Part shown: positions 46,055-63,690 of the stretch, in pieces
Position numbering within the stretch: the first letter of the stretch is position 1
Layout of the letters: each line of letters begins with the position of its first letter
NCBI GenBank assembly: GCA_963844965.1
Contig: CAWJQC010000009.1
Span: 32,001 to 96,000 of the forward strand
Source of the DNA: an uncultured bacterium
GTDB taxonomy: Bacteria; Patescibacteriota; Minisyncoccia; UBA6257; 2-01-FULL-56-20
DNA length: 64,000 bases
Reading direction: 5' to 3'
Made by a program: the position numbers and the translations under genes
Notes under the pieces: model-generated
The model's database searches: none
The model's input: only the letters and a program-made list of their open reading frames with translations
What the model was told of the DNA's origin: nothing

Positions 46055-46118
46055 ACCTAATTGAGGAGCAACGCCTTATGTGTTGTTACCAATACTCCTC
46101 GTTAGGTGTGGGGATAAA
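46055..46118. repeat. Palindromic intergenic repeat element, copy 1 (CCCACACCTAA … TTAGGTGTGGGGATAAA)
   Basis: Outer 11-12-bp inverted repeat around an inner GAGGAG…CTCCTC hairpin; a second copy lies at 63635..63690. Confidence 0.5.
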
Positions 46119-46157
46119 TCTCTGCTTGGGGTCAGGAAGCTGATGGCTTCGCAACAT

Positions 46158-47159
46158 CTACCGCCCCGCAATTAATTTTTTGAATTCTTCCACCATCGGC
46201 ACCTCCTCGGGTTCAACCCCATAAAGCTTGGCGGTATAATACGCCGTCCAATCCGCCAAACTCAGGGACGAAAAGATTTTTTCCCAGACGTTTCCGCCAC
46301 GCAGAGGCAGGATTTCTGACTTGAATCCGCGCTTGGCAAAGATTTTTCGCATCACACTCATCCTTTTCGCGATTCGCGGCCCATCTTCCTTATCTGTTAG
46401 AAATATAAAATGGAAATTCCGCGAGAGCCGCGCCGTGCTCCGTTTGGCGTCCCCGCCAGAGGCGGGTCCGCCTCTGGCGGAAAAGCCGGTCATCTCGTTG
46501 TGATTCGCCTCCGGCAAGACATTGCAAAACGCCGGAATTTTCCCTGTCTCGTTGAATTTTATCTTCCAGTTGTAAGCGATCGCGCGGTTGCGGAAAGAGG
46601 CATAAATCACGGGCACGTTGCCCCTTAATCTCCTCGCAAGTTTTTTTCCTTCCTGCTCGCGGCGGGACGGATGAAACGTTTCGGCAAGCTCGCTCAAATC
46701 CGCGAGCGCCTTTTTCTCACCCATTATTTTCAAAATTGCTTTCAAGCTGTAGCCAAGCGCCATTCTCGGCTGCATGTGCGAAGGCACGACAATGTGCGGC
46801 ACTTTGAGCATATGCGCCATTGTTATCAATTTCCCGCCCGAAGCAACCGCGGCAACGTTCAGTTTCTTTTTTATCGCCATCTCAAACGCGTCAATCGTTT
46901 CTTCCGTGTTCCCCGAGTAAGAACTCGCTATAATCAAACGCTCTTTCAACTCCTTGAGCGACAATGGTGGCAAACCATAATTTGACCAGACAATCACATC
47001 AAAATCGGGCCGCCAGGTTTGTATTAAATCAGCCGCCAAATGCGACCCGCCCATACCGGCGACGATGAATTTTTTATACCCGCTCAATTTCTCGACGTTC
47101 TCAACCTGCGGTTCCCAAGCGAATTGCTTACTAAAATTTTTTATGTCGTCGTAGATCAT
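46158..47159 (-). CDS. Bifunctional phosphoglucose/phosphomannose isomerase (SIS domain)
   Basis: …FIVAGMGGSHLAADL… and a double SIS layout. Confidence 0.7.
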   Translation of the reverse strand: MIYDDIKNFSKQFAWEPQVENVEKLSGYKKFIVAGMGGSHLAADLIQTWRPDFDVIVWSNYGLPPLSLKELKERLIIASSYSGNTEETIDAFEMAIKKKLNVAAVASGGKLITMAHMLKVPHIVVPSHMQPRMALGYSLKAILKIMGEKKALADLSELAETFHPSRREQEGKKLARRLRGNVPVIYASFRNRAIAYNWKIKFNETGKIPAFCNVLPEANHNEMTGFSARGGPASGGDAKRSTARLSRNFHFIFLTDKEDGPRIAKRMSVMRKIFAKRGFKSEILPLRGGNVWEKIFSSLSLADWTAYYTAKLYGVEPEEVPMVEEFKKLIAGR

Positions 47160-47197
47160 GGCTGCGGTTCAGATAAATTATAACAAAACTATGCGAA

Positions 47198-48397
47198 TCA
47201 GAAAACCGTTTTTCTTTTTCCAGAAGCTTTCAAAACTTTTTCTTTCGCGATTTCCATTGCCACTTCGCGCGGATTTCTTTTGTCGGCCAGGCTCTTTTTC
47301 ATCACTTTGCGAGTCGCTTTCGTCACTTTCTCTTCCACCAACTCAAACATTTTTTCCGGCGAATAGCCTATATATTCAGCGTAGGAAGATATCACGCCGC
47401 CAGCGTTAGCGACGAAATCAGGTACGATAATAATCCCCTTCCTGAACAATTCGTCTTCAATATTTTCACGCATTGGAATATTCGCGCCTTCAACTATGAT
47501 TTTCGCCCTTATCTTGTCTTTGTTTTTCTCGTTTATAACATCGGTCACGGCCGCCGGTATCAGAATATCCACAGGTAGGGCGAACATTTCATCGCTCGTC
47601 AGTTTTTTCGCCTGTCCCGAGCCTTGTCGAGGGACGCCCTGATAATCGGCCACGGATTTTTTCCTTGCTTTCAGGTCATGTAGAACTTTTTCATCCAATC
47701 CAGATTCCAAATACGCCGCGCCGCGGCTGTCGGATACCGCCACTATTCTCGCACCCATTTCCTTCAAGTACTTGAACGCAAAACTGCCGACATTGCCGAA
47801 ACCTTCAATGGCGACGGTCGCTTGCCCTGAGCCTGTCGAATGGGCGCCTTTCATATTCACGCCCGCGAGTTCCGCGGCTATCTTCACCGAGTGCGCGACG
47901 CCAAAGCCGGTGCTGCCGAGTTCGTGGGGTAAGCCGCAACTCCTCGTCTCTCCTCCGCCGGTCACAACGCAAAAATTGGCCGGCTTTCCAGTTGCGGCAC
48001 GCCTGTCACCCACCGCTTCGGCGAACCATTGCATTTCACGCTCGCCGGAATTGACGTCAGGTCCGGCAATATATTTTGACGGGATCAACGGTTTCAACGC
48101 ACGCGCGAAACTCTGCACATGAAGCTTTTTTTCTTCATCCGATTTCCACTTCGCGACCAGTCCCGCCTTTGCTCCGCCGAAGGGAATATCGGCAAGCGCG
48201 TTTTTCCACGTCATCGTTCTAGCGAGACGCCGCACTTCATCAATCGTAACGTTCGGCGTCATGCGAATGCCGCCTTTTCCCGGTCCGAGTGCGGTGTTGT
48301 CAATGACCAAAAAGCCCTCCATACCAACCTCCGCATCGTACACATGAATCAAATACTCCGGCCCAAATTCGTCGTTTTTGCCCAAATTGGCGCTCAT
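47198..48397 (-). CDS. Glu/Leu/Phe/Val dehydrogenase (glutamate dehydrogenase-like)
   Basis: …GPGKGGIRMTPNVT…PFGGAKAGL… and a Rossmann domain GFGNVGSFAF. Confidence 0.85.
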   Translation of the reverse strand: MSANLGKNDEFGPEYLIHVYDAEVGMEGFLVIDNTALGPGKGGIRMTPNVTIDEVRRLARTMTWKNALADIPFGGAKAGLVAKWKSDEEKKLHVQSFARALKPLIPSKYIAGPDVNSGEREMQWFAEAVGDRRAATGKPANFCVVTGGGETRSCGLPHELGSTGFGVAHSVKIAAELAGVNMKGAHSTGSGQATVAIEGFGNVGSFAFKYLKEMGARIVAVSDSRGAAYLESGLDEKVLHDLKARKKSVADYQGVPRQGSGQAKKLTSDEMFALPVDILIPAAVTDVINEKNKDKIRAKIIVEGANIPMRENIEDELFRKGIIIVPDFVANAGGVISSYAEYIGYSPEKMFELVEEKVTKATRKVMKKSLADKRNPREVAMEIAKEKVLKASGKRKTVF

Positions 48398-48520
48398 TTG
48401 GTTAATTATATACCAAACCTAATTCGCCCGAAACCCTACCGAAACCGTGTTTATACATCAATTTATGTGCACCTTTTGTAAACTTTACGCCGTATATATG
48501 TTAAAATCTAATAAGAAAAC

Positions 48521-49689
48521 ATGGCAGAGACCAAGAAGTCAAGAACGGTCAAGAAGAGGGTTGCGACAAGATCAAAGCGAAAGTCCCGAGTTTCCTCTGC
48601 GGCGAAGAGAACAAAAAAAACGGCTGGACGCCGACGTGTTTTGCCGCGCAAACATATTGAACATATCCTGGAGAGATTCCCCGGCAATCCGATCATTCAG
48701 CCAAACGCCGAGAACCAGTGGGAAAGCAAAGCGACCTTCAACCCGGCGGCTCTCCACGACAAAGGAAAAATCCACATCGTCTACAGAGCGATAGGCGACA
48801 ATGACGTGTCCGTCCTGGGCTACGCCACAAGCACCGACGGCACGAACATAGAAGAAAGATTGCCTCATCCAATTTACGCCAAAAAAGTGAGCGCCGCGGA
48901 CAATTCGGAGCGGTGTCTTCGGGATTTACAATCGCCGATCTTTTACATTTCGGGGGGCGGCTGGAACGGCGGCTGCGAAGATCCGCGCCTCACGCGCATA
49001 GGTGACACCGTCTATATGCTCTACACGGCTTTTGACGGCTGGGGGTCGCTCCGAATAGCGCTGACCTCAATAAAGACGAATGACTTCCGCAACAGAATTT
49101 GGAAATGGAAAGAACCGGTCCTGATTTCCCCGCCCGGAGAAATACACAAGAACTGGGTGATTTTCCCGGAGAAAATAAACGGCAAGTTCGCCATCCTGCA
49201 CAGCATATCGCCGAAAATCATGATTGACTATTTTGACGGTTTGGACGACTTAGATAACGGGATTTTCATTCGCAGCCGTTACGGCGGGGAAATGCGAAAA
49301 AATAAATGGGACAGCCACCCGCGAGGAGCCGGTCCCCGCCGATAAAAACGGGATATGGCTGGCTTCTCCTCTATCACGCGATAGACCATAAAGACCCCGG
49401 CAAATACAAGCTTGGGGCTATGATTTTAGACCTCAAAGATCCGACAAAAATCCTTTATCGCTCGAAAAAACCGGTTTTGGAACCGGATGAATATTATGAA
49501 AACGAAGGGTTCAAAGCCGGCGTGATATATTCCTGCGGCGCAGTCGTCGTCAACGGCCGGCTTATCGTTTACTACGGCGGAGCCGACTCGGTAAGCTGCG
49601 TGGCCACCGCCAAACTTGACGAATTCCTGAAAGGGCTCATTTCCGACAAAGAACCGAAACTTACGCGCCTGCAGCGATTAAAAAGCTAA
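48521..49689 (+). CDS. GH130-family glycoside phosphorylase/hydrolase, split by a C-run frameshift at about 49334-49337
   Basis: ORFs 48521..49345 and 49306..49689 join as …NKWDSHPRGAGP-PPIKTGYGWLLLYH… if the C4 run is C5. GH130 motifs GGCEDPRLTRIGDTVYMLYTAFDG and GYGWLLLYHAI are present. Confidence 0.7.
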
Positions 49690-49724
49690 GACCCCGCTTA
49701 ATTTGTGCCTTCTCTAATTCCAAG

Positions 49725-51649
49725 ATGTTCGTCTTCAAACGTTCGGAGGAAAATCCGATATTAATACCGCAAACCGAAAATTTATGGGAAGCTGAGGCAA
49801 CCTTCAACGGTTGCCCTGTTCCCGACGGGAAAAAAACTCATCTCCTCTACCGGGCGGTTTCCTCGGGGCAAATAGTGGACGGAAAAGAAATCAAAATATC
49901 TTCCATCGGCTGCGCCCTGTCCGATGACGGCGTGCATTTCAAAAACCGCAGGCAGTTTATCAAGCCGGAATACGAATGGGAACGCTTCGGCTGCGAAATC
50001 TGCGCGTGACCAAGCTCGGCGACAAATATTATATTTTCTACACAGCACTTTCCCAGTATCCCTTCAGGGCGGATGGGATAAAGATAGGCGTAGCGATAAC
50101 GAAGGACTTCAAGAAAATAGACGCGAAGTACCCGGTGACAACTTTCAATTCAAAAGCGATGGCGCTTTTCCCCGAAAAAATCGGCGGGAAGATCACGGCG
50201 GTGCTCACAGTGAACACCGATAAGCCACCGGCCAGAATTTGCCTTGCGCAATTCGACAGAGAAGAACAAATCTGGTCCAGCGAATACTGGGAAGAATGGT
50301 ATGGTAAGCTTGATTACCATGTATTGCCGCTCGCGCGGAAGTCAACCGACCACACCGAAGTCGGCGCGCCGCCCATTAAAACCAAATATGGATGGCTTCT
50401 GATTCTACCATATATTTCCAACTATTTCTTGCCGCCGCCCATATTCGGCATAGAGGCGGCGCTTCTGGACCTGAAAAATCCGAGAAACATAATTGCCGCA
50501 ACGACCAGCGCGCTGCTCTACTCGCGCGAAGAATACGAGAAATTCGGGAACGTGCCCAATGTCATCTTTCCGTCGGGAGCTCTTGTCAGTCACGGCAATC
50601 TCAACTTATATTATGGCGCGGCGGACACAACTTGCGCTTTAGCCACCGGAAAATTAAACGAGCTGCTGGAAGACCTGCGCTCGAAGCGGCCGCGCGCGGC
50701 GCGGCTCAAACGCTTTGCCGGCAACCCGATAATCAAACCGAAACCGGAAAGCGCGTGGCAGTCAAAAGCAACTTTCAATCCCGGAGCCATATACGCCGGT
50801 GACAAAATACACCTTCTCTACAGAGCCATGGACAAAGACAACACTTCAACCTTCGGATACGCGGCAAGTTCGGATGGTTACACGATGGATTACCGGCTGC
50901 CGCAACCGGTTTACACGCCGCAAGCCGATTTTGAAAAAAAACTGGTTCCCGGAGCGAATTCCGGCTGCGAAGACCCGCGACTCACGCTCATCGATAAAAC
51001 GATCTATGTGTGTTACACCGCTTTTGACGGCAAAAATCCATGGCGTATAGCTCTGACCTCCATATCGTTGGACGATTTCCTGAGCAGGCGCTGGAACTGG
51101 AAACGCCCGGTTCTCATTTCTCCGCCGGGAATTGACGACAAAGACGCCGTTCTATTTCCCAAAAAAATTGGCGGCAAATATGTGTTTCTGCACCGCCTTG
51201 GCGCGGACATCTGGATAGATTTTGTTGACTCACTGGAATTTGACGGCAAGAGATGGCTGCAGGGGAAAATAATATTGACGCCGCAATCCGGACCACAGGC
51301 CTCAAAAAAAATAGGCACCGGCGGGCCGCCCATAGAAACAAAGTATGGCTGGCTTCTCATATACCACGGCATATCCAGAGATGAGGACAATCATTACCAC
51401 CTCCGCGCCGCTCTTTTAGATAAAAAGGATCCTGCCAAGATTATCGCGAGGACCCACGAACCCATTCTGGAAACCACGGAATATTATGAAAAAGGCGGTA
51501 ATGTGAACAACGTTGTCTTCACCTGCGGTTCCGTCGTCGTCAACAACACTCTTTTTGTCTATTACGGCGGCGCGGATACGGTCGTCGGCGTCGCCACGGC
51601 GAATTTTGATGATTTTATGAAAAAATTATCCCGCGAGAAATATGCTTAG
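49725..51649 (+). CDS. Tandem double-GH130-domain protein, split by a frameshift at about 49995-50000
   Basis: ORFs 49725..50009 and 49976..51649. The GH130 signature occurs twice (…KLGDKYYIFYTA…KYGWLLILPY… and …CEDPRLTLIDKTIYVCYTAFDG…KYGWLLIYHGI…). Confidence 0.7.
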
Positions 51650-51702
51650 GGCCGGTTCCCCCAACCTACCTTGTTTCAAAATCAGTGAAGTTCTTAACTT
51701 CG

Positions 51703-51936
51703 TCACCGAACTCTTTTTCTAATCTTTCCACGTTGGCAAGCGCCGGTCCTTTGCGGCACCATCCCAAAAATTTCTCCAGTATCTTTTTCCTCGCCTTCGG
51801 CTTCAATATAAACCGAGCCGTCGGCCTCGTTGCGCACAAATCCTTTTACGCCAAGTTTGTCGGCCGTAAGTTTCGCCTCAAAACGGAAGTTGACACCCTG
51901 CACATCGCCATAGATTTTGATTATCAGATTTTTCAT
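51703..51936 (-). CDS. acyP: Acylphosphatase
   Basis: …IYGDVQGVNFRFEAKLTADKLGVKGFVRNEADGSVYIEAEG…. Confidence 0.75.
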   Translation of the reverse strand: MKNLIIKIYGDVQGVNFRFEAKLTADKLGVKGFVRNEADGSVYIEAEGEEKDTGEIFGMVPQRTGACQRGKIRKRVR

Positions 51937-52517
51937 TTCAAAGTTGATGTCGCCGGTGCTCCGAAAAACGGACAGGAGCCCCACAATCCCTTTTTGGCTT
52001 CGCGCGCTTCCTTCTCCGCAGTCACGAACTCTGCCGCATATTTTACATCCGGCGGAAAAGTTAACGCCGCCGCGTATCCTTCTTTGACCAATTCCAAATT
52101 AACGAAAGTGTCGTCTTGAAGGTAAACGTATCGCAGAAGCCGGCCATATTCGTCGCGTTCGCTCACATCTTTTACCAAGCGAACCGACCTTCCTTCCACC
52201 AATTCCTTGTTTCGCCGCGACGCCTCGGCTCCAAAACATTCAACTGGCTTCCGAGGGTCAACGGTTTCCGGCGCGTCCATGCCGATGTAACGAACACGCT
52301 CGCCGCCCGCGAGTTCAATTGTGTCGCCGTCAATCACGCGGGTAACCAAAGATAATGTTTGTTGACCGACTGCCGGCTCGGCAATTGAAACCGTGCTGCT
52401 CGCGCCCGATACAAAAACAGCGGATTGCGGCGCGCTCTTTGGCGATAAGAACCTTCCGGCAAAGAACCCGGCGATCGCCACGCCCGCGAACAACAGAAAA
52501 AATGGAACGCGCTTCAT
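51933..52517 (-). CDS. Secreted thermonuclease (SNase-like)
   Basis: Signal/TM helix, then …VIDGDTIELAGGERVRYIGMDAPE…RLLRYVY…. Confidence 0.75.
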   Translation of the reverse strand: MKRVPFFLLFAGVAIAGFFAGRFLSPKSAPQSAVFVSGASSTVSIAEPAVGQQTLSLVTRVIDGDTIELAGGERVRYIGMDAPETVDPRKPVECFGAEASRRNKELVEGRSVRLVKDVSERDEYGRLLRYVYLQDDTFVNLELVKEGYAAALTFPPDVKYAAEFVTAEKEAREAKKGLWGSCPFFGAPATSTLK

Positions 52518-53498: not shown

Positions 53499-54869
53499 TT
53501 ATTTTTTACTCTCTATCATTTCTTCGACCTTTAGCTTGGCTTCTTCTAATAATTCTTTTGCTTTTTTGCGGGCGGCGTGAGATTCGCGAATAAGTTCGGC
53601 GATTTTTTGCTGGGTTGGTTTGGGCAAAATTGGAATTACAATATTCTCAACATCTTGATCGGTAATAGTTGGATAAGATGTGCCCGTTGTTGGTTTTTCC
53701 ATTTGCAACTTACCGATGACGGACCGCAAAACAACCTGTAGATATTCGCGCGTCGGAGACGGGACTTCAAAAACCGAGAAGGCGCCACTCGCAACAAAGT
53801 TTTTGCTCCAGCTATCGGGCACGATTGCGATGGCACCACGAGTGGGTCGAACTTTTGAAATCAACAGCTCGCCCCCGACAATTTTAATCTTGGCATTTGC
53901 GGGCAACTCTTTACCCAAGATCAAGTTACTAGAAATTGCTCCGTTTCCAACGTTAACGTCGCTAATCTCGATATATTCGTATTGGACATCGGGCGCAAGC
54001 CCTGCCCGCCTTGCTGTTCGCTTAGCAATTTTGCCAAGAGGTTTTACATTTTCCCCCAAGAGTTTTATTAACTTTTGATACTTCGGCTGGAAAAATTCGG
54101 CGTCAATGCGATTCGCTTTTTTTGCTTCGGACAAATTAACCACGCTCCATAATTCATTTTCCGATTCAAAATTCTTAAGCCCCAATTCTTCCAAAAGTAA
54201 ATTTTCTGCTTGAGAGTATAGGGCATTTGCTTGATCCAAAGTGTTCTTGGCCCCAATCACCACATTGTTGATATCTTTGACGAATGCTTCTGATGGAATC
54301 GGATAAATCAAATCATAAACATCCTGGACATTTAATTTGGGTTGAGCGTTCCCGCTAATTCTCCTCATAATCTGAGCAAAACCAAACCTAGAATTTAGAA
54401 AGGTTAACAGAAATATTTTTTGCTCCGGCATCACTTTCGAGTTTTTGAACTTGATACCGATGTTATTCTCACTTATATTACAAACTTCAAATTCTTCTGG
54501 CACGGCAGATACAATACCAATCGTGTTGCCAACTTTAGACATTATCAAGTCGAAGGGAGAAAGCTGAGATTGCTTTAGTCGGTCATTGTCCTTTTTTGAA
54601 ATATATATGAGCTCGGTTTTATCAAGAAAAAAGTTTTGCAAATCAGAAATTCTCAAAAAAGGAATACCACTACTTACATAGGCACTACTTTTTAACGAGG
54701 AGCCGAAAGGGCCACTAACAACAACAGCGCTTTCTTTTAAGGTTTGTGTTCCGCCAGAAAATGATTTTATTTCGTTTATTAATTTCAAATACTCCGGCTG
54801 ATAATATTCCGCATCCAGCCGGTACGCACCCTCCAGTTGAGATTTTTGGATGATAGAATAACTAACCAT
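53499..54869 (-). CDS. hsdS: Type I restriction-modification specificity subunit HsdS (two target-recognition domains)
   Basis: 456-aa ORF with two TRD-like halves separated by conserved coiled-coil spacers (…LEELGLKNFE…, …KAKELLEEAKLKVEEMI…). Confidence 0.8.
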   Translation of the reverse strand: MVSYSIIQKSQLEGAYRLDAEYYQPEYLKLINEIKSFSGGTQTLKESAVVVSGPFGSSLKSSAYVSSGIPFLRISDLQNFFLDKTELIYISKKDNDRLKQSQLSPFDLIMSKVGNTIGIVSAVPEEFEVCNISENNIGIKFKNSKVMPEQKIFLLTFLNSRFGFAQIMRRISGNAQPKLNVQDVYDLIYPIPSEAFVKDINNVVIGAKNTLDQANALYSQAENLLLEELGLKNFESENELWSVVNLSEAKKANRIDAEFFQPKYQKLIKLLGENVKPLGKIAKRTARRAGLAPDVQYEYIEISDVNVGNGAISSNLILGKELPANAKIKIVGGELLISKVRPTRGAIAIVPDSWSKNFVASGAFSVFEVPSPTREYLQVVLRSVIGKLQMEKPTTGTSYPTITDQDVENIVIPILPKPTQQKIAELIRESHAARKKAKELLEEAKLKVEEMIESKK

Positions 54870-55523
54870 TTATTTTCTATTCTCTTTTTTGAATTTAACC
54901 AGCTTGGCCATTATTGAATCATTTAAAACTATAGCTTTTTCAATAAATCTTTCGCAAAGCCTTATCTCTTTTCGCATTGTTTCCAGCCACGTCTTTTTGG
55001 TTAAAGATTTTTTTGATATTGGCCTAAAACTCCTGTCATAACCAGAAACAGCGGTGTCATAATAAATACGGTGAGTTAACATCTTTCGCTTTACTAATAT
55101 CTCATGCATAACTTTGTCTTCGTTGAATTTCTCTAGATCTTTTTTAACCGAAGATTTTCTGACCATAGAATCTTCAGTAAGTTTATTGAATAAAGAAGCT
55201 TTTTCTGAAAATTGCAGATCAAGAGAGGCGTTTATAAGTTGGCAAATTTTTTCCCTATACGAAAACGCTCTCAACCAAAAATTTTCCAGGTGGTAGCCCA
55301 GGGATTCAAAATCAGTTTCCTGATGAATCGGTGATAGCCAGCCCTTGCCTGTCATAATTATTTTCGCAGTCCTTTCACAAAGCAGGTACGTCCTGGCTGC
55401 CCTACTATAAACGTCAATCAAATCGGATATTTCTTGACGGACCTCATTGTGATAGGCTTTCGCTTTCTTGGGAAACAATCGCCTATCAAAATCAAAAAAT
55501 GGTTGCCCTTTTGTTTTTTTCAT
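54870..55523 (-). CDS. Unknown 217-aa protein embedded between hsdM and hsdS (possible HEPN/Abi-like effector)
   Basis: Contiguous with hsdS (no gap) and 11 nt from hsdM. It is alpha-helical and basic, with an R-x4-H arrangement (RKMLTHRIYY). Confidence 0.5.
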   Translation of the reverse strand: MKKTKGQPFFDFDRRLFPKKAKAYHNEVRQEISDLIDVYSRAARTYLLCERTAKIIMTGKGWLSPIHQETDFESLGYHLENFWLRAFSYREKICQLINASLDLQFSEKASLFNKLTEDSMVRKSSVKKDLEKFNEDKVMHEILVKRKMLTHRIYYDTAVSGYDRSFRPISKKSLTKKTWLETMRKEIRLCERFIEKAIVLNDSIMAKLVKFKKENRK

Positions 55524-55534
55524 TATTTTTTATC

Positions 55535-56842
55535 TCAAAAATCGAATTTTTGTTCCTTGGTAAATTTCACGAATGCCTCGGCGATTTCGTCCAAGTCGTG
55601 GTCAAGCACCTTACGGCCTTTAGAGCCGTGCACATAACTACCGTTCGCGTCTTTTTTATAAATATAGTCACCAGAATTATCTTTGCTACCTTTTTTAGAG
55701 ACCGCCATGAAAATTGGATAATCCTTTTGCGGTTTGCCAGTGTCGCCGCCCCATTTTTGTAAAAAGAGCACGCTTGTTTTTGTGCCGGTATGCGGCTTGA
55801 ACGTGTTACCGTGAAGCCCGACGACGGCAAGAATACGCGCTTTTTCAAAAAGCCACTCACGGATATATTCCATGTTGGTGTTGTTAAGCACGCCTTGCGG
55901 CAGAACGATTGCCAAGCGGCCGCCGGGACGGAGCATGTCCAATGCGCGTTCAATAAATAAAATGTGTCGCTCAACGTTATTGCGAAGCTTACCTCCTTCT
56001 TTTTTTGCCAGTTCGTACTGGCGCAGAAGTCCCTGCTCCGGATTTTCTCCGGCGAAGGGCGGATTCGTGAGCAATATATCAAAATTCAAATGCCGATAGG
56101 TCAGATGATTTTCCTTGTCGCTTTCGCTATTATCCAAGGTTTGCAACAGAGGTTTAAGCGCCACGCGTGCTTCTTCCGCCTCCGGACCAGTCCACTCCCG
56201 CGAATCCAACGAATCACGTTTGAAAATATGGTGCTTGCCATCGCCAGCGATAAGCATTAATGCCTGCGATATCCGGCGCATGTTGTCGTCAAAGTCAATG
56301 CCAAAAAGATATTTTGCGGCGTAGGATTTTTTCGCCGCTTCGGTTTTTGAAAAATTGTCCCAGACATGATACATCGCGTGAAGGAGGAATCCGCCAGAGC
56401 CGCATGCCGGATCTACCACGTATTCGTTTTCTTTCGGGCTGAGCATCTTTACGCACATTTTAATGACATGCCGCGGCGTGAAATACTGCCCCTTTTTTCC
56501 CTTAGAAACTTCGGTGATGAGATGCTCAAACGCTCCATCCACAATCTCGTATTCGCCCTGCCCAAGCTCAAATAAGCGAATATTTTCCACGAACGGCACG
56601 CAGATGTTAAGGCGTGCGGCGGTAAGCTTGATTTTATCCGATGGTTCGAATGTGTCGGGCCACTCCTTGACCGCTTCCTTAAAAAGCCCGTTTACAACCT
56701 CGTAGGTTTTTTCGGCGTCTTTATATCTTCTAAACAACACCTCCCTACTTTCCCTTTCTCGGATAGCCATTTGCTCATCGTAGAGCTTGGCGTAAATAAG
56801 CTTGAAGATTCTCTTCAAAAACATTACCGCCGGAGCCGGCAA
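55535..56842 (-). CDS. hsdM: N6-adenine DNA methyltransferase, HsdM-like
   Basis: …GQYFTPRHV…DPACGSGGFL…NPPFAG… The true start may be the internal Met at 56770, which would avoid the overlap with the upstream gene. Confidence 0.85.
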   Translation of the reverse strand: MPAPAVMFLKRIFKLIYAKLYDEQMAIRERESREVLFRRYKDAEKTYEVVNGLFKEAVKEWPDTFEPSDKIKLTAARLNICVPFVENIRLFELGQGEYEIVDGAFEHLITEVSKGKKGQYFTPRHVIKMCVKMLSPKENEYVVDPACGSGGFLLHAMYHVWDNFSKTEAAKKSYAAKYLFGIDFDDNMRRISQALMLIAGDGKHHIFKRDSLDSREWTGPEAEEARVALKPLLQTLDNSESDKENHLTYRHLNFDILLTNPPFAGENPEQGLLRQYELAKKEGGKLRNNVERHILFIERALDMLRPGGRLAIVLPQGVLNNTNMEYIREWLFEKARILAVVGLHGNTFKPHTGTKTSVLFLQKWGGDTGKPQKDYPIFMAVSKKGSKDNSGDYIYKKDANGSYVHGSKGRKVLDHDLDEIAEAFVKFTKEQKFDF

Positions 56843-57488
56843 GCGCTAATTCTTCTATACGCTTGACGACTTTTATGAAGTCAAACTTCGGGGTCAAATC
56901 GCTCCACGTTTTCTTAATTTCAAACAAATCGTCCACTGTTTGATCGGCCGTTGGAATCTCGCTCAATGATTCATATTCTTTCGGATAGGGACGATATAAA
57001 ATTACTTTATCCGTGCCGTTAGACCAGATGCCGATCTCCGACCCCTCCGCGCTCAAATACGCTTTTAATTGTTCCTGCCCTTTCTTTTCGCTGGGCGCCT
57101 TAACTTCGACAATAATGTACGGTGTGATTTTATCTTTCTTGTAAACAACGATGTCCGCGGCCTTTGCGTGAATTTCTCGTCCAAAGTGGATGCTTTTTTC
57201 TGTTTCCATTCGCTCAAACGGATATTTGTAGTTGGTGTGAAGTTTATATAACCAGAGTTGGCGGACGATTTCCTCCGGCCTGCCTGCGTTTTTCTTGGCA
57301 TCAAAAACTAAACGTTTTTTACCGCTTTTCAGGTCGGCGATGAAAAAACGGCTTGGTTCGTCTTCGGTAATTTCGAGCGCCGCGTTAAATTCTACGCCCT
57401 CAAACTCTTTGAGACCGTAGAGCAGCTCGGTATCCTTAAAAATCTTTCCAATTATTTCCTCTGCTTTGTTTTGTTTTTTGGTGGGCAT
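56775..57488 (-). CDS. Standalone PD-(D/E)xK nuclease resembling the HsdR N-terminal domain (no helicase motifs)
   Basis: …AADIVVYKKDKITPYIIVEVKAPSEKKGQEQLKAYLSAEGSEIGIWSNGTDKVILYRP… gives the D…EVK PD-(D/E)xK layout of HSDR_N-type domains. It is only 237 aa, with no GxGKT/DEAH motif. Confidence 0.55.
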   Translation of the reverse strand: MPTKKQNKAEEIIGKIFKDTELLYGLKEFEGVEFNAALEITEDEPSRFFIADLKSGKKRLVFDAKKNAGRPEEIVRQLWLYKLHTNYKYPFERMETEKSIHFGREIHAKAADIVVYKKDKITPYIIVEVKAPSEKKGQEQLKAYLSAEGSEIGIWSNGTDKVILYRPYPKEYESLSEIPTADQTVDDLFEIKKTWSDLTPKFDFIKVVKRIEELALAGSGGNVFEENLQAYLRQALR

Positions 57489-57489
57489 A

Positions 57490-58131
57490 TTATCTTATCG
57501 GTTGCCAATAGTTATTTTTAAGCACCGAGATAATTTTTCCTTTGAGTTCCATCTCGTGGGTAAAAGGAATCAGCTCGTACTTTGGGTTTTCGGGCTTAAG
57601 GTACACGTATGGCGGTTTGTCGTCGGACATGAATCGCTTTATCGTGCCCTCGTCGCCGATTTGGGCATAGACTATTTCACCGGATACGAATTCTTTTTTT
57701 GTTTGAACTAGCACGGCGTCGCCGTCGTCAATACCCGCGTTTATCATCGAATCGCCGGAGACTTTGAGCATAAACACCTCTTCCGCCAATCTGGAAATCT
57801 CTTGAGAAACTGGCTGCCATTCACCGGAAATTTCTATCGACTGAATCGGAGCCCCGGCGCTTGTTATGCCAAGAAAGGCCGCGAGGGGCGGTCTACCGAG
57901 CATCTCATACCCCAAAGGCAATATGGCTAATCCTCTAGCAGCTCCTTCTTTTCTTTGTATTATTTTATTTTTCTCAAGCTTATTGAGAAGATCTAAAACT
58001 GATTGATTTGAGGAAACGCCTAGACTTTCTCGCATTTCATCAAAAGTCGGTGGATGGCCATCGCTCTTAATATATGAGTAAATAACCTCTAAAAGCTGCT
58101 TTTGTCTTGGTGTTGTTATATTTTTCATCAC
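57490..58131 (-). CDS. lexA: LexA repressor
   Basis: N-terminal wHTH, Ala-Gly cleavage site (ITSAGAP), S24 peptidase Ser (GDSM) and Lys (TIKRF). The stop lies 1 nt before the start of the downstream nuclease gene. Confidence 0.85.
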   Translation of the reverse strand: MMKNITTPRQKQLLEVIYSYIKSDGHPPTFDEMRESLGVSSNQSVLDLLNKLEKNKIIQRKEGAARGLAILPLGYEMLGRPPLAAFLGITSAGAPIQSIEISGEWQPVSQEISRLAEEVFMLKVSGDSMINAGIDDGDAVLVQTKKEFVSGEIVYAQIGDEGTIKRFMSDDKPPYVYLKPENPKYELIPFTHEMELKGKIISVLKNNYWQPIR

Positions 58132-58135
58132 TTAC

Positions 58136-58164
58136 ATTATACCCGACTATATATTCAGTTACAA
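58136..58164 (-). promoter_or_regulatory. Putative lexA promoter, TTGTAA-N17-TATAAT
   Basis: On the minus strand, TATAAT lies 8 nt upstream of the lexA ATG, and TTGTAA lies 17 nt further upstream. Confidence 0.4.
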
Positions 58165-58301
58165 TGCGGGTTTATGCACAACCCCTTTTTGGCTGTTTTT
58201 TCCAGTAACTCCCACTTTTCCGCGGATTTTTCCGGAGTAGTAGAAACTCGACAGGCTGGCGCTGGAAGAAAAAGTCGAGTTTCACCACCCCGCATAGCAC
58301 C

Positions 58302-58904
58302 CTAGCGCACCCTTACCGCACCTTTGCGCAAAATTTTCAGATGCCCGTCATTAATCGCCACGAGCGTTGAGGGTTCGGAAACGCACCGGCCGGTGTCAAT
58401 ATAAAAATCCACCTTGTCTCCGAAATAGCGCCGTGCTTCGCGAACCGTCCGCGCCGGCTTCTCACCTTCCCAATTGGCACTCGGAGCCACAAGTGGCCCG
58501 ACATTAACCAATAGTCGTCTTAGCCAATAGGGCTTAGGCAGACGGAATGCCAGAGTTTTAGTCCCGCGATGAAGGTATTTAAATTTTTTAATTTTTAATT
58601 TTGAATTTCCAATTTTCAATATCACGCTTACCTTGTTGGGCCAAACCCGATTCAAAATTTTCCTCTCTTTAGCTCCGATTTTCACGCCGAATTTTTTTGG
58701 GTCGGCCAGCGAAGCGATAAGAACGATCATCGGCTTCCGCGGATTCCGCCGCCTCAACTTGTAAATCCTTTCAACCGTTTTCTTGTTCAAGGCCGAGCCG
58801 ACGATGCCATAAATGGTGTCGGTAGGCAAAATTCCCACGCCGCCGGCAAGCAGTATATCTTTTGTTTTTTTATCTTTATCTAATGAACGGCTGATCTTGG
58901 GCAT
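58302..58904 (-). CDS. tsaC: L-threonylcarbamoyladenylate synthase TsaC/YrdC
   Basis: …ILLAGGVGILPTDTIYGIVGSA…; the start is assigned to the internal Met (MPKISRSL). Confidence 0.75.
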   Translation of the reverse strand: MPKISRSLDKDKKTKDILLAGGVGILPTDTIYGIVGSALNKKTVERIYKLRRRNPRKPMIVLIASLADPKKFGVKIGAKERKILNRVWPNKVSVILKIGNSKLKIKKFKYLHRGTKTLAFRLPKPYWLRRLLVNVGPLVAPSANWEGEKPARTVREARRYFGDKVDFYIDTGRCVSEPSTLVAINDGHLKILRKGAVRVR

Positions 58905-58960
58905 ATTAGCTCTTGACCCGCAAAATTGCGGTTTGCTTGAAATTATCGTACAATACAAAG

Positions 58961-59788
58961 ATGCAAAACACAAAACAAACGATAACCATTGCGGTCGTTT
59001 TGATAGTGGTCGTCGCGGTTCTCTGGTGGGTGTTCGGGACACAGAACGGTGCCCAAAATACAGCCGCTCCGCCCGGAAACGGCTTGCCTACAGCCGGCGT
59101 TACCGTGGAAAGCTCGTCTACCGCCTCTTCTACGTCGCCGTCAGTACCAACGACGGCGACCCAACCGAAATCCCCGACTACAGCCGCACAACCCAAATCG
59201 TCAGCGTCAATTGCCATAATTCATCCCGCCTCCGGAGAAAAATTCGTCGTAGGCCAGAATAATCTCATCCAATGGAGCAAAGAGGGCGGGGTCAGCGGCA
59301 GTATCTACCTTGTGAACAGCGCCGACAAATCAACCGTTGGCTGGATAAATTCCGAAATTGCCGTACACCAGACATCGTATACTTGGGACACACGCGACGT
59401 TTTTTTGAGCCGTTCCAATCCGTCCAAGAAAGATATCGTCCCGGGCACATATATAATAAAACTTCAGTTTGATTCCGCTCGTCTCGCCACGGTATCGAGC
59501 GCGCCCTTCCAGATAATTTATCCGAGCCAAGTGCAAACGCCGTCTTACGCAATCAGCATCAAAAACTTCACATTTTCGCCGGACAATATCACCGTAACCA
59601 AGGGAACGCTCCTCGTTTTCACGAACAACGACGCGGTTACCCACCGGATAATTCTGCAAGGATTCAGTCCCTTCACCGTCACGCCCGGCGCAACTTTAAC
59701 CTTTGACACCTCGGTTCTCGCGCCGAGCCCCTACAGTTTTTACTCCGACGTTTACTCCACGATGCGGCTCACGGTTACGGTGCAGTAA
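58961..59788 (+). CDS. Membrane-anchored secreted protein with a C-terminal cupredoxin-like domain
   Basis: TM helix, a Thr/Ser/Pro-rich linker, then a beta-sandwich region (…ISIKNFTFSPDNITVTKGTLLVFTNNDAVTHRI…). Confidence 0.5.
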   Translation: MQNTKQTITIAVVLIVVVAVLWWVFGTQNGAQNTAAPPGNGLPTAGVTVESSSTASSTSPSVPTTATQPKSPTTAAQPKSSASIAIIHPASGEKFVVGQNNLIQWSKEGGVSGSIYLVNSADKSTVGWINSEIAVHQTSYTWDTRDVFLSRSNPSKKDIVPGTYIIKLQFDSARLATVSSAPFQIIYPSQVQTPSYAISIKNFTFSPDNITVTKGTLLVFTNNDAVTHRIILQGFSPFTVTPGATLTFDTSVLAPSPYSFYSDVYSTMRLTVTVQ

Positions 59789-59803
59789 ATTATTTTCGTA
59801 AAA

Positions 59804-60406
59804 GTGAAATTACTGAAGAGGGTTGATTCGCTGGAAGTCAAACGCTGTTTTGTCGTATCGCAATACGGAAGGGGCAGGAAAGATAAAAGGGACATACCGA
59901 CGTTCACCAAGCGAGCGTTCGCAAGAAGACTGAGTCGGGCGAAAAATTGGGCCAAAAAACTTTCCCAAAAACAACTGGATCGCATCATCGCCTCCGATTG
60001 GAAGCGCCGCCTCCGCGCTTACGATAGCGCCAGCTGGTGGCTAGGACAAGTAAATATAAACGAAGTCGGAGTATGGAGACGTGCCGGCGGCCTGCCGCTC
60101 TCCTGGACTAATTGCTCGCTTCAAGAAACGGCGAAAAAAGTCGCGAAAGCCCTTCCGGCTGGAGGCCGCTCAAGCGCCTTAAAAACGATACCAAAAATTT
60201 TGAAAACCTCAATTGGCTTCGTGCAAAAAGAAAAATTACTGTTTCCGATCGTTTTTCAGGGTGGCACTGGCACGCGAGGCAGAAAGGGGTTGAAAAAAAT
60301 GCGCGGCGACATTGATAACGGCTGCATGAGGGCTATCGCGCTCGCTATGACGGGCAAAAAATCTTTTAAGGCGTATATCGGTGTCAAGCTTCAACCTCAC
60401 AACTAA
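59804..60406 (+). CDS. Hypothetical basic protein
   Basis: 200-aa K/R-rich ORF. Confidence 0.35.
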   Translation: MKLLKRVDSLEVKRCFVVSQYGRGRKDKRDIPTFTKRAFARRLSRAKNWAKKLSQKQLDRIIASDWKRRLRAYDSASWWLGQVNINEVGVWRRAGGLPLSWTNCSLQETAKKVAKALPAGGRSSALKTIPKILKTSIGFVQKEKLLFPIVFQGGTGTRGRKGLKKMRGDIDNGCMRAIALAMTGKKSFKAYIGVKLQPHN

Positions 60407-61701
60407 AATCTGTCCCCGATAAACGCTCTGCCGCGCAGTTTTTTGTGATAGCTTATCGCAAAGCGGTGGGCTTCGTTCCTGACTCTTACGAGCGTGTTTT
60501 TGCTTACGCCGCGCGGGATTTCGCCGATTATGTCGTTGCGCTTGCGCTCTGGGCCCTTGGCGATGCCAACTATAGGAATTTTCAGTCCGAATTCCGCGAG
60601 CACGCTCTTCGCGGCGTTCACCTGTCCCCTGCCGCCGTCAATTAAAATCAAGGCGGGCAATGGCCAATTATTATGGAAGCGCCGGCGCAAAATTTCTTTG
60701 AGCATGCCAACATCGTCGGATTGAGTTATGGTTCTGATTCTGAATTTACGGTATTCGTTACTGTCGGGTTCATTTCTGCTGAACACAACCATAGAGCCGA
60801 CGGCCGAAGTGCCGGAGATATTGGAGATGTCATAACCCTCGACTCTCGTGGGTGGTAGGTGGCGAGTAGTAGGTAGTAGGTCGGAATCAGAGATCAGGGC
60901 AACGTCGCGGATGTGCTGCAACGCGAAAATCTGGCGACGGAATTTTTCGGCTTTTTCAAATTCAAGGTTTTTGCTTGCGGCGGTCATCTCTTTTTCCAGA
61001 TTCCGCAGAATCTGTTTTTTCTTGCCCCCGAACAACAATTTGAGATTTCTGATGTTTTTCATATAATCCCCGCGGCTTATCGCGCCGATGCACGTGCCAG
61101 GGCAAAGCCCCAGTTCGTATTCAAAACATGGACGCCTGCGGCTCAACCAACCCGAAGCAACAAATTTATCCGAATGCTCCGAATTTTTATTTGTAGATTC
61201 GGATGTAATCCGTAGTTTCGGATCGCACGCATCGGCATGAGTGCTCCACGGAAAAATCCGCCGCAGGATTCGTAACGCCTCGCGGATGCTTGACGCCGAA
61301 GTAAACGGACCATACTGCTTCGCCGCTGACTTACGCGGACTAGACGCAGACTTAACTTCTCGTCCACGGACGAGCAGCACACGCGGGAATTTTTCTTTTG
61401 TAATTTCCACGTACAAAAAACTTTTATCATCCCGTTCGCGCACATTGAAGGGCGGCGAGTATTTTCTTATAAGCTCCGCCTCCAAAATCAACGCTTCAAG
61501 CGCCGTATCGGTTTTTCTATGGTCAATTTTTTTGATTTTTCCGACCAATGTTTCAATGCGCGTGTCGTGCGCCCGCATGAAATAACTTGAAACCCGCCGG
61601 CGCAAATTTCCAGCCTTGCCGACATAGAGAATATGGCCGCCTCCGTCCCTGAACAAATAAACGCCCGGCTCGTCGGGCAGGTTTTTATACGAATTATCCA
61701 T
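60403..61701 (-). CDS. uvrC: Excinuclease ABC subunit C (short form lacking the C-terminal HhH domain)
   Basis: GIY-YIG (GVYLFRD…ILYVGKAGNLRRRV), UVR motif, and the RNaseH-like endonuclease domain (…GYDISNISGTSAVGSMVVF…YRKFRI…). Confidence 0.8.
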   Translation of the reverse strand: MDNSYKNLPDEPGVYLFRDGGGHILYVGKAGNLRRRVSSYFMRAHDTRIETLVGKIKKIDHRKTDTALEALILEAELIRKYSPPFNVRERDDKSFLYVEITKEKFPRVLLVRGREVKSASSPRKSAAKQYGPFTSASSIREALRILRRIFPWSTHADACDPKLRITSESTNKNSEHSDKFVASGWLSRRRPCFEYELGLCPGTCIGAISRGDYMKNIRNLKLLFGGKKKQILRNLEKEMTAASKNLEFEKAEKFRRQIFALQHIRDVALISDSDLLPTTRHLPPTRVEGYDISNISGTSAVGSMVVFSRNEPDSNEYRKFRIRTITQSDDVGMLKEILRRRFHNNWPLPALILIDGGRGQVNAAKSVLAEFGLKIPIVGIAKGPERKRNDIIGEIPRGVSKNTLVRVRNEAHRFAISYHKKLRGRAFIGDRF

Positions 61702-61710
61702 TAATTTATT

Positions 61711-62607
61711 TTAATCCTCTTTCTCGCTGTGAAACAGGAAATCCAGAAACTTTTCGCCAAACGTCTTGGGAAGTTCAGGGTAACCGGTCGCCCTCCTTAT
61801 CTCGCGCAGATGCAGTCTTGTCTCTTCGGCCCCGATGCCGATGATCTCCCGCGCGCTGCCGAAGCTGAAGGTGCCAAAACCAAAGATCTGCGGCTTAATG
61901 ACCACGTCCGCCTGCTTCAGTATGTTCTTGGCGAGCTGATACTCAACGATGCCCAGCGAGCTTGAGATAGCGGCATACATGCTTTTTGTATCTATCGCCT
62001 CGTCCGGCGAATCAGCCCATCGCGAAGAAACGTCAACGGCTATAACATATTCAGCACCCATTTCCCTCACAATGTCCGCCGGCACCGGATTCACGAGGCC
62101 GCCATCCATCAGTAATTTGCCGCCGGCTTCAACTGGACTGAAAATCAACGGCAGGGCGATGCTCGCATCCACGGCATCCATCAACTTACCGCTCTTCAAG
62201 ATCACCTCATCCCCATTTCTCGCGTCAGTGGCCACGGCCACGAAAGGAACTTTACAATCCTTAAAACTAAGGTTATGGAATGACGATTTCAGCAAGTGGC
62301 TCACGGAATCGCCCTTAAAGAGCGCGCCTTTTTTATGCCTCAGCATCTCCGTAACCGGGAAAATCTCGCGTGGCTTGATCTTTAAAAACAAATCTTCCAG
62401 AAATTCTATGTCTTCCGTGGCTGCGTACCAGGCGCCAACGAGCGCGCCCATGCTGGTTCCCGCAATAAAATCAATGGAGATGCCGGCGTTTTTTAAAACC
62501 TTAATAACGCCGATGTGCGCCAGACCCTTGGCTCCGCCGCCGCCGAGAGCGAGCCCCGTAGTGAGCCGAGCACCTCTTTTTTCTTTGCGCACCCGCGACA
62601 AGTTCAT
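61711..62607 (-). CDS. Patatin-like phospholipase
   Basis: GGGAKG oxyanion motif, GTSMG nucleophile elbow, and DGG; the start is assigned to the internal Met (MNLSRVRK). Confidence 0.75.
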   Translation of the reverse strand: MNLSRVRKEKRGARLTTGLALGGGGAKGLAHIGVIKVLKNAGISIDFIAGTSMGALVGAWYAATEDIEFLEDLFLKIKPREIFPVTEMLRHKKGALFKGDSVSHLLKSSFHNLSFKDCKVPFVAVATDARNGDEVILKSGKLMDAVDASIALPLIFSPVEAGGKLLMDGGLVNPVPADIVREMGAEYVIAVDVSSRWADSPDEAIDTKSMYAAISSSLGIVEYQLAKNILKQADVVIKPQIFGFGTFSFGSAREIIGIGAEETRLHLREIRRATGYPELPKTFGEKFLDFLFHSEKED

Positions 62608-62731
62608 GATTTTTTTATAGGAATACGCACGACACAAATTCCAAATAGAACAAAACTGGCCAGTGCTCGGTCTACTACGGGGCGAGACCGATTTTTTTCG
62701 TTTTGGGTGCTTTGGCCATGCCGACCGATGT

Positions 62732-63013
62732 TCAATCGCCCAGAAGCACGTATACCGCGCATTTGCCAATCATGGGAAGCACGCCGCCTTCAATCTCCTC
62801 ATCAACCTTATCCAGGGGAACGCTCACGCTGCCGCCGGCGGAAAATAAATGGTCGCCCACGATATAAGCAGTCTTATGCCCGTCTCTGTCGTAAATGAAA
62901 TTTCCCGCAAAGTAGCCGAGTTTTTTGTCGTCGTGGGCGCGGATGTGGCTTCCATCAATCCAGCCGACTTTTTCCCCGCCCCGCCAGATATCCCTGCCAA
63001 CTATTTTAAGCAT
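62732..63013 (-). CDS. Hypothetical small protein
   Basis: 93-aa ORF. Confidence 0.35.
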   Translation of the reverse strand: MLKIVGRDIWRGGEKVGWIDGSHIRAHDDKKLGYFAGNFIYDRDGHKTAYIVGDHLFSAGGSVSVPLDKVDEEIEGGVLPMIGKCAVYVLLGD

Positions 63014-63094
63014 GTCTTTTATGATTATTATAACAAAATCCTTTTAGAAAACAAGGCCGCGGTAAAATACTCCGCGGCCTGCGCATTTCGCGCG

Positions 63095-63517
63095 CTAAGA
63101 CGTTTCAAGCCGGTTCTGGTCGTCAACAAGCGCGAGAAGAACTTTGTTGAGGCTTTTGCTAATGCCACGCTTGTTTTCACTCTCAACAACCCTTTCAATC
63201 TCGGCGCGATTTACGAGAACGATCCTCTTTACCCTATTCATCAAGAAAAATACAGCAAATGCCATGCCAAATCTGAATCTTGAATCTTCAGAACCGATAA
63301 CCGGCAAAATGTGGACTTCATCCGACCGGGCTATGTCGCCCAACTCATTCATGTAATTCTGCAAGCCAACCGGATCGTCCTGTTTCATGTCGCGCGCTGG
63401 CCAATAAACCTCATGACCGTCGCGTTCCAATTCATCAACGTGCTCCCTTGCGGCTGTATGTTCGAGACCTCTATCACAAATCAGAAAGATTTTTTTCTTT
63501 CTTTTCTCGTTTTTCAT
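63095..63517 (-). CDS. Hypothetical protein
   Basis: 140-aa ORF. Confidence 0.4.
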   Translation of the reverse strand: MKNEKRKKKIFLICDRGLEHTAAREHVDELERDGHEVYWPARDMKQDDPVGLQNYMNELGDIARSDEVHILPVIGSEDSRFRFGMAFAVFFLMNRVKRIVLVNRAEIERVVESENKRGISKSLNKVLLALVDDQNRLETS

Positions 63518-63634
63518 AAGCTCCCAGCGGTAACTTTAAAACGGCTGAATATAATATAGGTTACCGCGGGAATTTTTGCAAATAAACAAAAGCGTTTCCC
63601 TACGCTATACCAGCACCTTCCTCAAATATTGCCC

Positions 63635-63690
63635 GGTAAATCCCCACACCTAACAGCGAGCAGGTTTTACTCTGTTACTCGCCATTAGGT
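63635..63690. repeat. Palindromic intergenic repeat element, copy 2 (CCCCACACCTAA … TTAGGTGTGGGGATAAA)
   Basis: Same outer arms as the copy at 46055..46118, with a different inner hairpin. Confidence 0.5.

Follow-up and report, generated by a model that had tools for sequence, protein, structure and literature searches.

The locus raises the question of why two intergenic palindromes, lying 17.5 kb apart among housekeeping genes, have common termini and unlike interiors. They are found at positions 46045-46118 (copy 1) and 63637-63701 (copy 2) of the window, i.e., the whole analyzed stretch of 64,000 nucleotides of contig CAWJQC010000009.1 from an uncultured bacterium belonging to the Patescibacteria, also called Candidate Phyla Radiation (CPR). 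Both sequences are probably copies of a family of non-autonomous transposable elements of the Patescibacteria resembling miniature inverted-repeat transposable elements (MITEs). The evidence consists of conserved termini, flanking duplications, the presence of several copies per genome and one site seen both filled and empty, and it favors the MITE-like alternative among those named in the original prediction, which had been made from the sequence of the window.

The termini of both copies are (T/C)CCCCACACCTAA and TTAGGTGTGGGG(A/G); GGGGATAAA is the same in copy 1 and copy 2, and the interiors between the 11-nt cores measure 41 nt (copy 1) and 31 nt (copy 2). The forward-strand sequence is tgaa-TCCCACACCTAA-(41 nt)-TTAGGTGTGGGGA-taaa in copy 1 and taaa-TCCCCACACCTAA-(31 nt)-TTAGGTGTGGGGA-taaa in copy 2. 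Two elements with shared outer arms and different inner parts, as originally predicted, thus exist in the window, but the predicted positions were a few bases off. Regarding the identical 12-bp arms, three of the four are full 12-mers, whereas the left arm of copy 1 misses one C. The predicted ATAAA tail is present in both copies but is not one unit: its first A is the last base of the inverted repeat, paired with the T ahead of the C-run, and the remaining TAAA is a 4-nt flanking repeat (junctions TAAA|TCCCC...GGGGA|TAAA in copy 2 and TGAA|TCCC...GGGGA|TAAA in copy 1). Single-strand folding of both copies yielded z-scores of -4.6 to -7.5 relative to shuffled sequences. The 11-mer core, searched with up to one mismatch allowed, occurs four times in the window (0.48 expected), always exactly, and the four occurrences are the two inverted pairs of copies 1 and 2; a profile of the family's element ends revealed no further copy or remnant in the window. 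A strong palindrome at 31759-31823, inside an 11-kb island, has a superficially similar foot (TACCCCACC...GGTGGGGTA); it was not counted as a member because the end profile misses it and a flanking direct repeat is absent.

The simplest alternative is that two ordinary terminator hairpins are alike by coincidence, or that one arose from the other by local duplication. Both copies do lie directly 3' of minus-strand genes, as originally described, namely those for phosphoglucose isomerase (PGI; 39 nt) and uvrA (11 nt). The interiors of the two copies are unrelated, which rejects a simple duplication, and the T-tract signature of a terminator is absent. The reading as intrinsic terminators was rejected for both copies, since no T-tract directly follows the stem and the terminator scan was negative. 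The explanation by coincidence is refuted by a scan of species genomes, in which the 13-nt foot common to the arms of both copies recurred at more than 50 other loci, and it can practically be discarded.

The scan used the pattern CCCACACCTAA-N20-50-TTAGGTGTGGG, as had been suggested in the original prediction, on one genome per species (185,579 species) and returned 58 sites in 57 loci, with about one expected by chance (596 Gb x 31 spacings / 4^22). At the level of the family the arrangement is thus far from limited to the two copies of the window, and the matches form a dispersed repeat family with conserved termini and a variable interior. According to the records' own taxon labels, some of which may be imprecise, 45 of the 57 loci belong to metagenome-assembled genomes (MAGs) of Patescibacteria (labeled Nealsonbacteria, Paceibacteria/Paceibacterota, Parcubacteria, Wolfebacteria, Colwellbacteria, Nomurabacteria or Saccharibacteria), six to unclassified 'bacterium' MAGs and six to other taxa. 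The element is carried by about 33 assemblies; the Nealsonbacteria MAG CSMAG_2115 holds at least ten near-identical copies in both orientations as well as a second subfamily, and several other MAGs hold two to four copies each.

Matches set aside as unrelated comprise that of a Coxiella endosymbiont (L002, 6314-6365), where the arm pair lies in the 23S rRNA gene directly ahead of the conserved GCGTACCTTTTGTATAATGGGTCAGCGACTTA and looks like an expansion or intervening hairpin outside the CPR family; those of Marinicella (L018, L054), which are an orthologous terminator-like hairpin in two genomes; and those of a 'Prevotella' MAG (L033, L039, L056), which are a different repeat at contig ends. 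A phage origin was likewise rejected, as the arm pair is absent from viral contigs and two single-end viral matches without a partner arm are due to chance. In one Nealsonbacteria MAG (L027 4250-5435; L055 1760-2780; L038 5000-5830) elements stand on both sides of single housekeeping genes (one pilin-like, one MscL-like, and nikR), and truncated or hybrid copies of two subfamilies stand side by side at the same loci. In L049 (3929-3975 and 5903-5945) the right arm with about 45 nt of flank (TAAATCTCCGCT-T8-GACAAAAA) is found in two places separated by 2 kb, and the left arm is missing at the second.

The anatomy of the element was determined from 52 distinct copies aligned from the outside inwards. 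The first nine core positions are fixed by the search pattern and the last two are free; these nevertheless read TAA/TTA in 49 of the 52 copies. The paired region starts three bases beyond the searched core on its outer side (A, then CC or TC) and ends seven bases inside it. The inner seven positions are 79-90% complementary, with three to six pair types each and a loose consensus YRAGNNN, and complementarity falls to about 21% at the next position, which marks a sharp boundary. The terminal inverted repeats hence comprise about 20 bp (13 invariant and seven variable complementary bases), with the end 5'-(C/T)CCCCACACCTAA followed by seven bases. Such a profile characterizes terminal inverted repeats that have a fixed length and enclose an unrelated, unconstrained core; taken alone, it fits either pairing of the arms with each other or the reading of each arm by the same protein. 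The elements measure 35-140 bp, mostly with 50-70 bp between the ends, have a half-site spacing of 11 to 110 nt and contain no open reading frame (ORF). Rare arm variants are altered on both sides together (CCTAT/ATAGG, CCTGC/GCAGG and CCCCTCACC/GGTGAGGGG), and among copies found without selection for perfect arms, intact or compensated ones outnumber solo or truncated arms. Mismatches of the G-U versus the A-C type, counted relative to gene sense, favored the sense strand in 15 cases and the antisense strand in 14, with seven ties. As G-U pairs are not biased towards the transcribed strand, there is no sign of a strand-specific RNA structure, which was rejected as an explanation, and the palindrome looks like a feature of the DNA.

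Right outside the inverted repeats stands a tetranucleotide T-N-N-A, whose middle two bases are directly repeated and not complementary. With fixed boundaries, a perfect 4-nt direct repeat flanks 21 of the 58 copies, whereas 5000 permutations of the right flanks gave 4.1 such copies on average and never more than 11; at least three of the four flank positions match in 31 copies (15 expected). The usual repeats are TAAA/TTTA, TCAA/TTGA and TATA. One copy has the atypical CACG on both sides, and L040 and L044, which come from one MAG and have closely similar interiors, differ in their repeats (TCAA versus TGAAA); these two observations argue for a true duplication of a variable target and against flanks that belong to the element itself. 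Extended repeats of 7-12 nt, running through flanking CCCC(C), were seen for example in L030 (384-393), L004 (1426-1435) and L017 (177-185).

The same flanks bear on the possibility of a REP-like or IS200/IS605-like element (REP, repetitive extragenic palindrome), that is, a single-stranded DNA hairpin moved by an HUH (Y1) transposase, with the flanks as cleavage or target motifs. The entire element is one long hairpin, the compensated arm variants would suit such a structure, and the targets TTGAC, TTTAC and TATAC resemble the penta- and tetranucleotide targets of IS200/IS605 members. A possible bias in orientation is also found in the Nealsonbacteria subfamily, in which the interior is oriented the same way with respect to the TTGAC side in seven of eight copies, and one flank is always TTTA in the lineage of the window (copies 1 and 2, L026 and L141). 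The tetranucleotides of L040 and L044, however, differ in spite of similar interiors, yet match on the two sides of each copy. A conserved GTAG or CGTC head is absent, the copies are longer than REPs, and the element has a symmetric structure instead of the two like-oriented hairpins of Y1 elements. Y1_Tnp was not found among the scanned ORFs of the window, nor was a recurring protein family found near the copies. The REP alternative with an associated tyrosine transposase (RAYT), also named in the original prediction, is accordingly considered unlikely.

A sign of insertion was found in the relative L141, whose PGI is 78% identical to that of the window. There, a family member of 140 nt (L141 4144-4287) lies between the promoter and the body of the PGI gene, in the arrangement ...TATAATTTAATTGATGA|TTTA|TCCCCACACCTAAAAAGGAT...ATCCTTTTTAGGTGTGGGGA|TCTA|CAACGACATAAAAAAT, with the junctions ...TTGATGA|TTTA|TCCCCACACCTAA...TTAGGTGTGGGGA|TCTA|CAACGAC. 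Removal of the element and of one repeat from L141 yields ATGATCTACAACGAC (ATG ATC TAC AAC GAC ATA AAA AAT), while the homologous start in the window, read from 47159 downwards, is ATGATCTACGACGAC (ATG ATC TAC GAC GAC ATA AAA AAT). The excision thus restores ATGATCTAC..., the intact sequence of the window at that position, and because the excised sequence matches the intact TCTA site of the window, the element is taken to have entered codons 2-3 of PGI in the lineage of L141. Reading from the old ATG of PGI now ends at the left arm's TAA, and the PGI start chosen by the gene caller is an in-frame GTG within the right arm. The element seems able to replace a start codon.

These observations agree with what is expected of a MITE: the element is short and non-coding, has terminal inverted repeats and a target-site duplication, is multi-copy in both orientations and is present or absent at orthologous sites. 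Its patchy distribution among relatives and its unrelated neighbors fit the same reading. In the proposed mechanism the target of insertion would be short and A/T-rich (TNNA, in many cases TTGAC or TTTAC), with duplication of 4 bp, occasionally 5 bp. The element would be mobilized in trans by a transposase recognizing the conserved termini, presumably a DDE-type enzyme of the cut-and-paste or copy-and-paste kind, as the symmetric ends together with the flanking duplication suggest. The copies of the window would be insertions into the 3' intergenic spacers of PGI and uvrA that are tolerated there, and they probably have little function beyond that of a strong hairpin in the 3' untranslated region. 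Enzyme class, current activity and effect on expression are inferred.

Several points weigh against interpretation as a MITE-like transposon. An exact flanking repeat of at least 3 nt is absent in 18 of the 58 copies, and the repeat length apparently ranges from 3 to 5 nt within one subfamily. In about a quarter of the copies the repeat runs on into CCC(CC), e.g., GTCAACCCCC, which is beyond what a simple 4-bp duplication explains and implies that the target resembles the element's own end. The filled/empty pair is a single case, with repeats that are one base short of identity (TTTA and TCTA). Arm pairs at a distance of 150-4000 bp, as expected of an autonomous element, were absent from about 1 Mb of loci except for adjacent small copies, and neither a DDE nor a Y1 transposase was detected among 55 scanned ORFs of the window (the longer ones of a set of 71); the only recombinase found there is a large serine recombinase inside an unrelated island. 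Finally, perfect arms enclose interiors of only about 40% identity in two pairs of orthologous sites, which suggests that the arms are under selection beyond selfish mobility. These sites are the yajC-secD spacers of L034 and L047 (SecD 67% identical) and the sites upstream of proS in L015 and L025; in both pairs arms and flanks are identical and the middle is strongly diverged. A constraint on the arms is thus suggested by the perfect orthologous arms, the scarcity of decayed copies, the C-run targets and the missing repeats. Its cause could be a continuing interaction with the transposase or use of the element by the host.

The extended repeats would find a place in a scheme in which the copies derive from a site-specific recombinase system of the serine or tyrosine type, as mini-elements or as remnants of its junctions, the arms being P/P' half-sites and T-NN-A the crossover core of attL and attR. 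The targets (GT-NN-AC, often followed by CCCC) would then resemble the joint of the element, the repeat would be a variable dinucleotide in a palindromic GT..AC frame, and it would be understandable that direct repeats often reach 7-12 nt with a target like the element end; large serine recombinases are also present in these genomes, one of them in the window (29885-31213). A length of 50-70 bp is too short to circularize, however, and the crossover dinucleotide should be fixed for each element but varies. CACG on both sides of one copy would require four coincidences, and no recombinase gene recurs near the copies. Such an origin is regarded as highly improbable.

All copies of the family are intergenic or at gene edges, mostly between co-directional genes, and several adjoin tRNA genes; no protein family recurs beside them, the neighbors being unrelated housekeeping genes. 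In 12 of 63 copies (19%) the -35 box of a near-consensus sigma-70 promoter begins 1-2 nt beyond the arm (layout GGGGG-TTGACA-N16-18-TATAAT, at least 10 of 12 positions matching); only 0.3% of random positions in the same loci reach this score. The promoter is situated outside the repeat proper, as the promoter spacers differ between copies, and the TTGA of these -35 boxes is the duplicated target. The promoter at the yajC-secD spacer (L034, L047) is composed of TTGACT inside the element, TAGAAT outside it and, between the two, the arm, which provides the 17-nt spacer. Upstream of proS (L015, L025) the arrangement of the copies is comparable, with TTGGGA as a weaker -35-like hexamer within the element and TAGAAT/TAAAAT outside.

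Such an arrangement would also be expected of an immobile cis-regulatory element of the host, i.e., the binding site of a conserved DNA-binding protein of the Patescibacteria, or else a hairpin for processing or termination, which selection would maintain ahead of promoters and behind genes. Besides the promoters next to the arms, or with an arm as their spacer, the arms that stay perfect at the orthologous yajC-secD and proS-upstream sites while the interiors diverge argue for it, as does the near absence of decayed copies. It is opposed by the filled and empty site, with its insertion inside a coding start, and by the flanking duplications. The element is missing from nearly all relatives of the window organism, the downstream genes share no function, and the spacing of the half-sites varies. 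The copies of the window, moreover, have neither an abutting promoter nor a U-tract, and uvrA has a terminator-like hairpin of its own. An exclusively regulatory, immobile element is thus considered very unlikely. A further proposal, which would add to mobility and is put forward as no better than a speculative, rather doubtful one, is that the 13-nt termini are the recognition site of a Patescibacteria-wide protein and that copies are recruited as portable promoter-proximal modules. The protein may be a transposase, either active or domesticated, or else a nucleoid factor or a transcription factor. Copies may insert into or rebuild -35 and -10 hexamers and may provide the spacer of a promoter, a stop codon (TAA, left arm) or a start codon (GTG, right arm), and selection may keep them intact at orthologous sites over long periods.

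The features of the window that concern the element are listed in the table.

Coordinates of the two element copies, the empty target site and the adjacent genes in the window
Feature	Position	Strand	Remarks
Element copy 1, including flanking tetranucleotides TGAA...TAAA (3/4 identical)	46045..46118		between PGI stop (46158) and response-regulator start (45909)
Copy 1, left terminal arm TCCCACACCTAA	46049..46060		11/12 consensus bases; one C short compared with right arm
Copy 1, interior	46061..46101		inner stem GAGGAG/CTCCTC (46063-46068, 46095-46100) and variable apical part
Copy 1, right terminal arm TTAGGTGTGGGGA	46102..46114		TTAGGTGTGGGG at 46102-46113; ATAAA ends at 46118
Element copy 2, with perfect 4-nt direct repeat TAAA (63637-63640, 63698-63701)	63637..63701		between uvrA stop and terminator-like hairpin
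Copy 2, left terminal arm TCCCCACACCTAA	63641..63653		CCCCACACCTAA at 63642-63653
Copy 2, right terminal arm TTAGGTGTGGGGA	63685..63697		TTAGGTGTGGGG at 63685-63696; ATAAA ends at 63701
Empty target site at PGI start, ATGATCTACGACGAC	47145..47159	-	TCTA at 47152-47155 is the insertion point in L141
Response regulator and histidine kinase	44202..45909	-	with copy 1, between PGI and 110-aa gene (adjacent in relatives)
Bacterial-type phosphoglucose isomerase (PGI)	46158..47159	-	PF10432; upstream neighbor of copy 1
uvrA, 3' end	63713..64000	-	stop codon 63713-63715; upstream neighbor of copy 2

Copy 1 lies 39 nt past the PGI stop and 140 nt ahead of the response-regulator gene, both genes being on the minus strand; copy 2 lies 11 nt past the uvrA stop and is followed by a 140-aa ORF, both genes again being on the minus strand. 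Neither copy has a promoter directly against it, the likely promoters of the downstream genes lying 60-90 nt away, and the terminator scan detected no intrinsic terminator and no U-tract or T-tract at either copy. Canonical terminator-like hairpins with T-tracts were observed at 63591-63606 (minus strand), after uvrA and copy 2, and at about 44145-44175 (minus strand), after the histidine-kinase gene. In the Rfam search of the whole window at the gathering threshold tRNA was the sole match, and around copy 1 (E<=10) no family was recognized (best E=2.5). A cyanobacterial origin was rejected, as the HIP1 sequence GCGATCGC is not enriched in the window. Logan contigs matching the window were short and identical to it in sequence, and added nothing past its ends.

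The closest PGI homologs are labeled Liptonbacteria, Parcubacteria, Paceibacterota, Minisyncoccia or Patescibacteria group, which, with the gene content, assigns the window to a Patescibacteria genome. No copies were present around 80 PGI homologs (474 kb), and a conserved feature of the PGI locus was rejected, given the lack of copies in these 80 related loci and the non-conserved adjacency of PGI and the response regulator. The PGI and uvrA loci of the closest relative (L139, L145) contain neither a copy nor degenerate ends, and both window sites are unoccupied or non-syntenic there. In all four relatives compared (L073, L139, L140, L141) PGI is not followed by the pair of response regulator and histidine kinase, which means that copy 1 lies in DNA that is itself inserted relative to them. 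The 110-aa gene follows PGI after 8-37 nt in L073, L139 and L141, and two ABC-transporter genes are inserted at this junction in L140; in the window it is filled by the regulator-kinase pair and copy 1 (43765-46157). From these comparisons the junction looks like a hotspot of gene insertion.

The gene content of the window comprises SecDF, DnaK/DnaJ/GrpE/HrcA, CysRS, DnaB, RecR, YchF, LexA, UvrC, UvrA and a type I restriction-modification system. The last of these, with S, M and R-N-terminal fragments, occupies 53499-57488 beside lexA (57490-58131) and has a HEPN-domain gene embedded in it. The region 12300-19300 has a G+C content of 59-63%, compared with 44-50% elsewhere, and contains eight large ORFs without a Pfam or PHROG match; one of them (13690-14892) encodes an N-terminal '...FEPLEERQLLS' motif and Asp-box-like SxDxGxTW repeats, which are typical of planctomycete-style secreted proteins. 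This region may be a foreign island or the result of a chimeric assembly. The region 29960-41050 (about 11 kb) is inserted in comparison with the closest relative: YchF and a 121-aa gene, its neighbors on the two sides, are separated by about 430 nt in L139. Encoded in the region are the large serine recombinase (29885-31213, minus strand), a peptidoglycan-binding protein and one resembling ClpP, and it is probably an integrated element or prophage remnant.

As a MITE the element is of an ordinary kind; the family is undescribed, in a group without documented elements of this sort. A literature search found neither the arm sequence in a bacterial context nor a description of MITEs for Patescibacteria, and to our knowledge no repeat or MITE families have been described in this group, whose genomes are tiny and streamlined. 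From a transposon end common to many Patescibacteria lineages it follows that the transposase acting on it is either widespread among them or passed horizontally from one to another. Such ends are a marker of gene flow where markers are scarce, a starting point for finding the enzyme and possibly for a native transposon tool in newly tractable organisms. The association with promoters and the insertion replacing a start codon suggest that these elements can rewire expression in genomes with very few regulators. For annotation, the family accounts for strong intergenic hairpins which could be mistaken for terminators or small RNAs.

Among known systems, the attC sites of integrons likewise have conserved outer inverted cores and a center that varies in sequence and length, and some copies overlap the attC cores RYYYAAC and GTTRRRY (ACCTAAC...GTTAGGT); each copy of the window has one of the two. 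Most copies, however, read ACCTAAT/ATTAGGT instead of AAC/GTT, the conserved part is 13 nt and not 7 nt long, and the copies are solitary among housekeeping genes, without cassette arrays and without an intI found in the scans of the window. REPs measure 20-40 nt, have a GTAG or CGTC head and are without flanking duplications. The present element shares with REPs and bacterial interspersed mosaic elements (BIMEs) the extragenic palindromic hairpins, the lineage-specific stems and the frequent position after genes, but differs in its foot CCCCCACACC, its size of 50-140 nt, its variable TNNA flanks and the lack of a RAYT gene among the scanned ORFs of the window.

Insertion sequences of the IS1380 family and piggyBac-type ends have termini starting with CC and A/T-rich target duplications of 4-5 bp (ISfinder summaries). 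They would resemble the present element in these two features and in promoters at the ends. Outward promoters of IS1380 elements are described in one publication (PMC9330008). The link is treated as a tentative lead because neither an IS1380-like transposase nor a full-length element with these termini was found. The bcr1 repeat of the Bacillus cereus group measures about 155 bp and duplicates the T-rich target TTTAT. It is similarly a small MITE-like repeat with a preferred T-rich target that is duplicated, but it is longer, unrelated in sequence and from a different phylum. Nearest in behavior are bacterial MITEs such as the Correia elements (NEMIS), which are not known outside the genus Neisseria, measure 100-155 bp, carry 26-bp repeats and duplicate TA. 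Like these, the present element, for which no parent insertion sequence is known, is short and non-coding, with terminal inverted repeats, a short target duplication and dispersed intergenic copies in both orientations, its ends can supply or abut promoter hexamers, and it forms a hairpin when transcribed. Unlike these, it is much smaller, mostly with 50-70 bp between its ends and a 4-bp TNNA duplication, and its 13-nt terminus extends across many lineages of the Patescibacteria.

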